DNA of 64,000 nucleotides, from sequence record PQ615101. One strand, written 5' to 3'. The stretch is from Shigella phage SP21535. The notes beneath the pieces were generated by a model. That model was not told the origin of the DNA and made no database searches. It saw only the letters and a program-made list of their open reading frames with translations. Of this stretch, positions 62,627 through 63,411 are shown piece by piece (within the stretch, counting starts at the first letter, position 1; every line of letters begins with the position of its first letter). The translations under genes were made by a program, and so were the position numbers.

Positions 62627-63208
62627 ATGATTAAATTGGTATTCGCTTATTCTCCAACTAAAACGGTCGAAGGCTTTAATGAATTAGCATTCGGTTTATG
62701 TGATGGTTTACCATGGGGACGAGTTAAAAAGGACCTCCAAAATTTTAAAGCTCGTACCGAAGGCACAATTATGATTATGGGTGCTAAAACGTTCCAGTCA
62801 TTGCCTGCATTACTTCCAGGTCGTAGACATATTGTAGTGTGTGACCTCGCGCGTGATTATCCTGAAACTAAAGACGGCGATTTAGCACATTTCTATATTA
62901 CATGGGAGCAGTACATAACTTACATTTCTGGCGGTTCAATTCAAGTGTCAAGCCCTAATGCGCCATTCGAGGCTATGCTTGATCAAAATTCTAATGTAAG
63001 TGTAATTGGCGGACCCGCTCTGTTATATGCTGCATTACCTTATGCAGATGAAGTAGTTGTTTCTCGCATCGTTAAAAGGCATCGTGTTAATTCAACGGTT
63101 CAATTAGATGCAAGTTTTCTTGATGATATAAGCAAGCGTGAAATGGTTGAAACCCATTGGTATAAAATAGATGAAGTAACAACCCTTACGGAATCAGTGT
63201 ATAAATGA
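62627..63208 (+). CDS. frd: dihydrofolate reductase
   Basis: 193 aa; DHFR core motifs around GLPW and MGAKTF. Confidence 0.9.
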
Positions 63209-63411
63209 GCAATAAATTAAAAGTTAAGGATGTTCCTAATGCTATGGCCCTTTTTATTTGTCGGCAGATGCATCAAGGGCCTATGACACCAAAACAATAT
63301 CTTAAAGGTGAGCGTTCTTTAGGATTTACTCGCAAAGCAAAACAAATGGTTAAATTAGGATATAAGCCTAACTTTGCCAAATATCCTTCTACATATTCTT
63401 GGATGAACTAA
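63205..63411 (+). CDS. hypothetical basic protein inserted between frd and td
   Basis: 68 aa; ATGA overlap with frd stop and TAATG overlap with td start. Confidence 0.45.

Follow-up and report, generated by a model that had tools for sequence, protein, structure and literature searches.

A small basic-protein gene wedged between frd and td in Shigella phage SP21535 and its relatives

In phage T4 the genes for dihydrofolate reductase (frd) and thymidylate synthase (td) overlap directly; in Shigella phage SP21535 (sequence record PQ615101) a 68-codon open reading frame (ORF) is wedged between them. What is this ORF, how did it come to lie there, and does it share in the work of the enzymes on either side? 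We analyzed a stretch of 64,000 nucleotides of this phage, referred to below as the window, which is a segment of a Tequatrovirus (T4-like) genome with top database matches about 95–96% identical across 12 kb. Judged by codon-level comparison with related phages, the ORF is a genuine protein-coding gene with purifying selection on its frame. The best explanation overall, in which we place moderate confidence, is that it is an accessory gene, non-essential to the large virulent enterobacterial myoviruses that carry it, probably coupled in translation to its neighbors, borne on a cassette, and acting outside deoxythymidine monophosphate (dTMP) synthesis.

A coding gene that overlaps both neighbors

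All features of the locus lie on the plus strand. The frd gene (62627..63208; 193 aa) ends in a TGA at 63206–63208 that overlaps the start codon of the ORF at 63205–63207, so that the two genes share an ATGA at 63205–63208. The ORF (63205..63411) opens with this ATG, runs for 68 codons and ends in a TAA at 63409–63411, the last A of which is also the first base of the td start codon at 63411–63413; this second overlap reads TAATG (63409–63413) and has one base in common between the two genes. The start of td is the ATG at 63411, and not the upstream TTG at 63399, and its ribosome-binding region, TGGATGAAC, sits within the last codons of the ORF. Exon 1 of td extends from 63411 to about 63960; the T4-type td group I intron begins at about 63961 and continues past the end of the window. 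The first-pass annotation of this DNA, which had reported the 68-codon ORF with its ATGA and TAATG overlaps, is correct in every detail when compared with the sequence and the ORF list, and its description of the ORF as extra is borne out relative to T4.

At this base composition an open frame of 204 nt has a chance of about 0.5% of arising at random in a given frame; the stronger evidence that the ORF is not a chance product is its conservation across phages. Searches with tblastn matched the 68-aa protein in 237 phage records, covering at least 80% of its length in 235 of them and reaching at least 99% identity in 88; the annotation of these is almost always ‘hypothetical protein’. Codon-level comparison of the ORF with its counterparts in Klebsiella phage Marfa, pzk-kv8, Enterobacter phage CIP9, Serratia phage 4S and JS10 gave ratios of nonsynonymous to synonymous substitution (dN/dS) of 0.06–0.2 in all informative pairs. 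Within an alignment of 30 family members with identities down to 38%, residues K6, P11, G40, M48, G52 and Y53 are invariant, and R20, Q24, K34, G35, L51 and P55 are conserved in at least 90%.

The protein matches PHROG 9550, a family of unknown function, over its entire length (E = 1.3e-45; residues 1–68 against profile positions 1–68 of 68), and its conserved residues are common to the distant members of this family among the 30 aligned sequences. A single-sequence search returned 19 clusters of the family and a profile search 43, all of them stand-alone proteins of about 66–77 aa; longer members are frameshifted or upstream-extended calls, with the exception of one 92-aa member that has a C-terminal extension. 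The family is narrow: clustering of 1.84 billion proteins at 50% identity leaves only 6 representatives of it. The ORF had initially been presented without reference to prior annotation, an oversight, as it is already annotated in many genomes. Proteins 100% identical to it carry the label ‘hypothetical protein’ across numerous genomes of Tequatrovirus; Yersinia phage fPS-65 (g232c), Shigella phage pSs-1 and Escherichia phage ACG-C40 have the same gene, with an identical or near-identical 68-aa sequence, at an equal position and with equal overlaps, differing in nothing from that of the window. Since the gene is annotated in more than 100 T4-like phages and catalogued as a PHROG family, its novelty is low; the ‘hypothetical protein’ found between frd and td in Tequatrovirus and Dhakavirus belongs to a family that has no function attached to it. 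The RefSeq record of JS10 (NC_012741; L005 1501–1707) contains an intact ORF of 98.5% amino acid identity that is unannotated, and leaves 200 bp between frd and td blank where the ORF lies.

Presence and absence of the cassette at the frd–td slot

Compared with T4, the ORF amounts to an insertion of exactly 204 bp with the pentanucleotide AATGA at either border. Junction comparison places the left copy of this direct repeat, which forms the cassette border, at 63204..63208, and the right copy at 63408..63412, where it takes in the TAA stop of the ORF and the start of the td ATG; the empty sites of T4, WG01 and PSD9 hold a single AATGA. Among the Dhakaviruses, JS10, JS98, dhaeg and Ec2-ASingh carry the ORF, while WG01, PSD9, E33, IME08, QL01, Bp7 and MX01 are non-carriers, and the phosphodiester positions at which presence gives way to absence are equal to those in Tequatrovirus. 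The 60 nt upstream are identical in the carriers JS10 and JS98 and the non-carriers WG01 and PSD9, with about 10 differences from the window and T4, and at lineage-specific sites downstream JS10 groups with WG01 and the window with T4.

Cassette identity between the window and JS10 is 97.5%, compared to 80.6% for frd and 79.9% for td exon 1. The proportion of synonymous differences (pS) in the same comparison is 0.10 for the ORF, 0.54 for frd and 0.69 for td, and none of 240 flanking blocks of 68 codons has a pS below 0.42. This tract of identity starts between 63202 and 63205 and ends between 63411 and 63426, with estimates of about 63203 for its left end and 63421–63425 for its right. When the window is compared with Marfa, CIP9, kv8 and 4S, the divergence of the ORF is about equal to that of its flanks, which argues that the island shared with JS10 is not a product of nucleotide-level constraint. 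In the absence of such constraint, an island of 97.5% identity between flanks of about 80% points to the cassette having recently passed between Tequatrovirus and Dhakavirus without its flanks.

Viewed across these phages, the 204-bp cassette acts as a discrete unit, gained and lost precisely at the AATGA microhomology. In the likeliest mechanism, recombination between co-infecting phages would move the cassette, with exchange points collecting at the borders of heterology, either through stalled branch migration or through synthesis-dependent repair that re-anneals once homology resumes; deletion of the cassette would result from slippage between the two AATGA repeats. Among described processes, the nearest is the shuffling of ORFans in T4-type phages that is mediated by promoter early stem-loop (PeSL) elements (Arbiol et al., 2010; PMC2839356). 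Like the ORF, the ORFan cassettes of that system are single small genes of unknown function that are optional between conserved genes and exchanged as a unit. Unlike them, the 68-aa ORF is not flanked by early-promoter and stem-loop repeats, none of which were found around it; with zero intergenic space it has only the 5-bp AATGA and relies on the signals of its neighbors.

Possible traces of recombination are also seen close to the cassette. In the record of Shigella phage sb4 (L007 1501–1707) the 68-aa ORF is interrupted by an in-frame stop and td is annotated in fragments; the 3′ end of frd resembles that of the window, whereas the 5′ end of td bears substitutions of the Dhakavirus type, and sb4 is either a recombinant with its junction at or inside the cassette or a low-quality record. 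In the window, td exon 1 is a mosaic relative to T4 (63577–63730), with about 3 mismatches per 50 nt up to position 63576 and 10–22 per 50 nt thereafter, unlike frd, which is 95% identical to T4 throughout; the mosaic indicates a recombination breakpoint inside td.

The initial description of the locus as a T4-type junction with one insert gives way, on comparison across the T-even phages, to a variable slot with multiple states. The 68-aa ORF occupies it in 135 of the 596 records that match the region. In T2, T6, RB14, RB3, AR1, PST, Sf24 and others the same slot holds a 115-aa ORF with spacers (RB32ORF229c), which is unrelated in sequence to the 68-aa ORF and is found by tblastn at 90% identity or above in 363 records. 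Within a spread sample of 60 rows from the 596 records, the empty T4-type overlap of frd and td was present in 3, and looked like the rarest slot state among the rows sampled. The two ORF families co-exist in CIP9 and pzk-kv8, where a three-ORF array gives the order frd, 229c-like ORF, its paralog, 68-aa ORF, td; in the light of this arrangement the slot states of the T-even phages look like different deletion derivatives of a fuller array. The 115-aa cassette of T6 (L023 1030–1377) has intergenic spacers and is not overlap-coupled; it lies between 9-bp direct repeats, TAAATGAAA, and deletion between the two copies yields the exact T4 junction, while the direct repeat at the slot of the window is AATGA. 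The T4 overlap appears to be a minority state of the slot, and is probably a derived one. In one case, Escherichia phage AlbertHofmann / Bas47 (L024 1032–1379), the slot gene is annotated ‘putative homing endonuclease’ and is 94% identical to the T6-type 115-aa ORF; we saw no evidence of a nuclease and this label is probably a misannotation.

A cassette of this kind might be mainly selfish or hitch-hiking, spreading into empty frd/td junctions while its peptide adds little to fitness, for example following a double-strand break introduced by a nuclease from another locus, or through copy-choice between the AATGA repeats. The precise presence and absence at equal positions in two genera, and the island of high identity in diverged flanks, are what such an element could leave behind, and T4 has free-standing mobile genes that are likewise wedged between others: mobE, a free-standing homing endonuclease gene between nrdA and nrdB, overlaps nrdA as UAAUGA (Edgell et al., 2010; PMC2988022). 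Genes of the mobE type share with the ORF a position between nucleotide-metabolism genes with stop/start overlap, an optional status and horizontal transfer; the 68-aa ORF, however, is far too small for such a gene, lacks a GIY-YIG or HNH motif and any similarity to I-TevI, and its 68 residues include no conserved acidic residue. Wherever the ORF occurs among the T4-like records inspected, it lies between frd and td, which gives no sign of transposition to other sites. Moreover, purifying selection extends across deep divergence, including phages in which the gene is not a cassette at this site. A mainly selfish cassette therefore seems to us an unlikely explanation of the gene.

Expression and the connection to td

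No promoter or terminator was found at the frd/ORF and ORF/td junctions, and the intergenic space is zero on both sides, so any transcript that runs from frd to td must include the ORF, which would thus be carried on the frd–td unit. The overlapping stop and start codons at 63205–63208 and 63409–63413 have the anatomy of coupled gene pairs. The Shine-Dalgarno (SD) sequence of the T-even ORF, the upstream sequence of which is the 3′ end of frd, is weak (−3.5 kcal/mol), and this fits a start by termination–reinitiation at the ATGA. From this anatomy we infer that frd, the ORF and td are probably coupled in translation: ribosomes ending at the frd stop would restart at the overlapping ATG of the ORF, and would then reach td at the TAATG.

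Does this shared expression imply a shared function? The ORF lies directly 5′ of td, with stop/start overlap, in Tequatrovirus, in the Dhakaviruses JS10 and JS98, in Marfavirus, in Kanagawavirus CIP9 and in Serratia phage 4S, while the interval from frd to the ORF holds 0, 1 or 2 additional ORFs in these five T4-like genera or lineages. The retention of the td overlap alongside a changing frd side would suit a protein dedicated to thymidylate synthase, or to the complex for deoxynucleoside triphosphate (dNTP) synthesis, as its partner or regulator, with coupled translation fixing its stoichiometry with Td. By contrast, the homologs outside the T4-like phages, in the phAPEC8 group and four metagenomic phage backgrounds, are found in long arrays of small uncharacterized genes, none of them near td or any nucleotide-metabolism gene. 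These homologs have strong SD sequences of their own (−9 to −13 kcal/mol against the anti-SD), and their independence from td makes a role in dTMP synthesis unlikely. No conserved neighbor was found to travel with the family across these backgrounds, most T-even phages, including T4, T2 and T6, are without the ORF, and close Dhakaviruses differ only by its presence. We consider a dedicated partner of Td to be distinctly improbable. The first-pass annotation, which had suggested that the ORF is expressed with the nucleotide-metabolism operon, is thus upheld in part: joint expression with frd and td is likely, and the functional link to nucleotide metabolism that it implied is not supported. Our reading is that the td-adjacent site is a parking place of the gene in T4-like genomes, and that the protein works alone.

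A second small gene of this region has a counterpart in the same group of phages. A 100-aa ORF of the window (62015..62317, plus strand), located between frd.2-like and frd.1-like genes, is 58% identical to phAPEC8 gp223 (L002 7407–7679), a member of the early-gene array in which the 68-aa family is also represented in phAPEC8; phAPEC8-like phages thus share two or more small genes with this T4-like region.

It might also be the act of translating the ORF that matters and not the peptide, the ORF serving as a cis-acting leader that feeds ribosomes to td and tunes Td synthesis or the splicing of the td intron. The location of the td ribosome-binding region within the 3′ codons of the ORF and the conserved stop/start overlap accord with this idea, which is nevertheless very hard to reconcile with the low dN/dS and with invariant residues along the whole protein. 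In addition, the family is conserved where the downstream gene is not td, and T4 expresses td from an equal upstream sequence without the ORF; we regard a leader function as highly improbable. Finally, a spurious ORF in a noncoding spacer, to which the small size, the lack of a database function and the missing annotation in the JS10 record might point, is effectively refuted by the comparative data, namely the dN/dS of 0.06–0.2, the intact frame in 235 of 237 records, the low odds of a chance open frame and homologs at 38–46% identity in unrelated phages with strong SD sequences.

Further upstream, the window carries a 105-bp deletion at the 3′ end of gene 32 (61330/61331; ORF 60447..61382) when set against each of the eight best-matching phage records. 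Lost with it are the last seven codons, which encode the acidic tail DDLLNDL, the hairpin GGGGACCCTAGAGGTCCCC-T6 of the gene 32 terminator and the −35 element of the next early promoter, leaving a gp32 of 311 aa, and its junction lies at an ACCT microhomology. The eight listed database matches align here in two pieces, and the contiguous form is seen in none of the eight. The deletion could be a natural variant, a laboratory mutant or an assembly artefact; it would allow gene 32 transcripts to read through into the frd–ORF–td unit.

Protein features and functional reading

The 68-aa protein has a mass of 7.9 kDa and is strongly basic, with an isoelectric point of 10.3 and 13 Lys and Arg residues against 2 Asp and Glu. 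Two concordant AlphaFold2 runs, which used alignments of 17 and 30 sequences, predicted helices at residues 13–24, 29–39 and 43–50, with a mean predicted local distance difference test (pLDDT) score of about 78, and a C-terminal tail that folds back against the N-terminus. Searches of Pfam and NCBIfam and a sequence-profile search of the PDB gave no match for the protein, and Foldseek found no structural neighbor of the model in the PDB; in BFVD its only matches were the 68-aa family itself. The three-helix core is without structural match to known helix-turn-helix domains. PADLOC gave no match at E <= 10, a weak test, as its models describe defence and not anti-defence proteins. A homing endonuclease of the GIY-YIG or HNH type, intact or as a remnant, was considered and rejected: there was no Pfam match, the hhalign comparison with I-TevI was negative (probability 0.3%), and conserved acidic residues were absent from the 30-sequence alignment. 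The lack of conserved acidic residues, together with the lack of a Cys/His cluster, makes a nuclease or a zinc protein unlikely. Homology searches returned no function for the protein, and no experimental data were found in the literature.

The best-supported statement is that the 68-aa protein is an optional early or middle accessory protein. This follows from its small size, from its strong positive charge with conserved basic residues and from its independence of any partner gene, as well as from its occurrence only in large virulent enterobacterial phages, its optional status and its horizontal spread. Most likely it acts alone, early or midway in infection, through contact with nucleic acid or an acidic host target, in host takeover or counter-defence; within the overall explanation our confidence in this specific molecular role is low. 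More tentative still, and rather doubtful, is the proposal that the protein would be the first of a family of basic effectors with a new structure, binding for example the nucleoid, RNA or a defence protein, that would spread among unrelated virulent enterobacterial phages and in the T-evens move as a self-contained ATGA-junction cassette. If true, this would make it a promoter-less counterpart of the PeSL cassettes that plugs precisely into ATGA-type coupling junctions.

Taken alone, the ORF is one more uncharacterized small phage gene, and one that is already publicly annotated. Two points lend it modest interest. The textbook ATGA overlap of frd and td in T4 is seemingly the rarest of at least three states, derivable from either of the others by deletion between short direct repeats. 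The cassette itself offers a clean natural case of a promoter-less gene crossing between phage genera without its flanks, with base-level precision and with coupling apparently intact on both sides. Should a new fold and a role in host takeover or counter-defence be established for the protein, pairs of carriers and non-carriers that are close at the locus, such as JS10 and WG01, would be ready experimental material.
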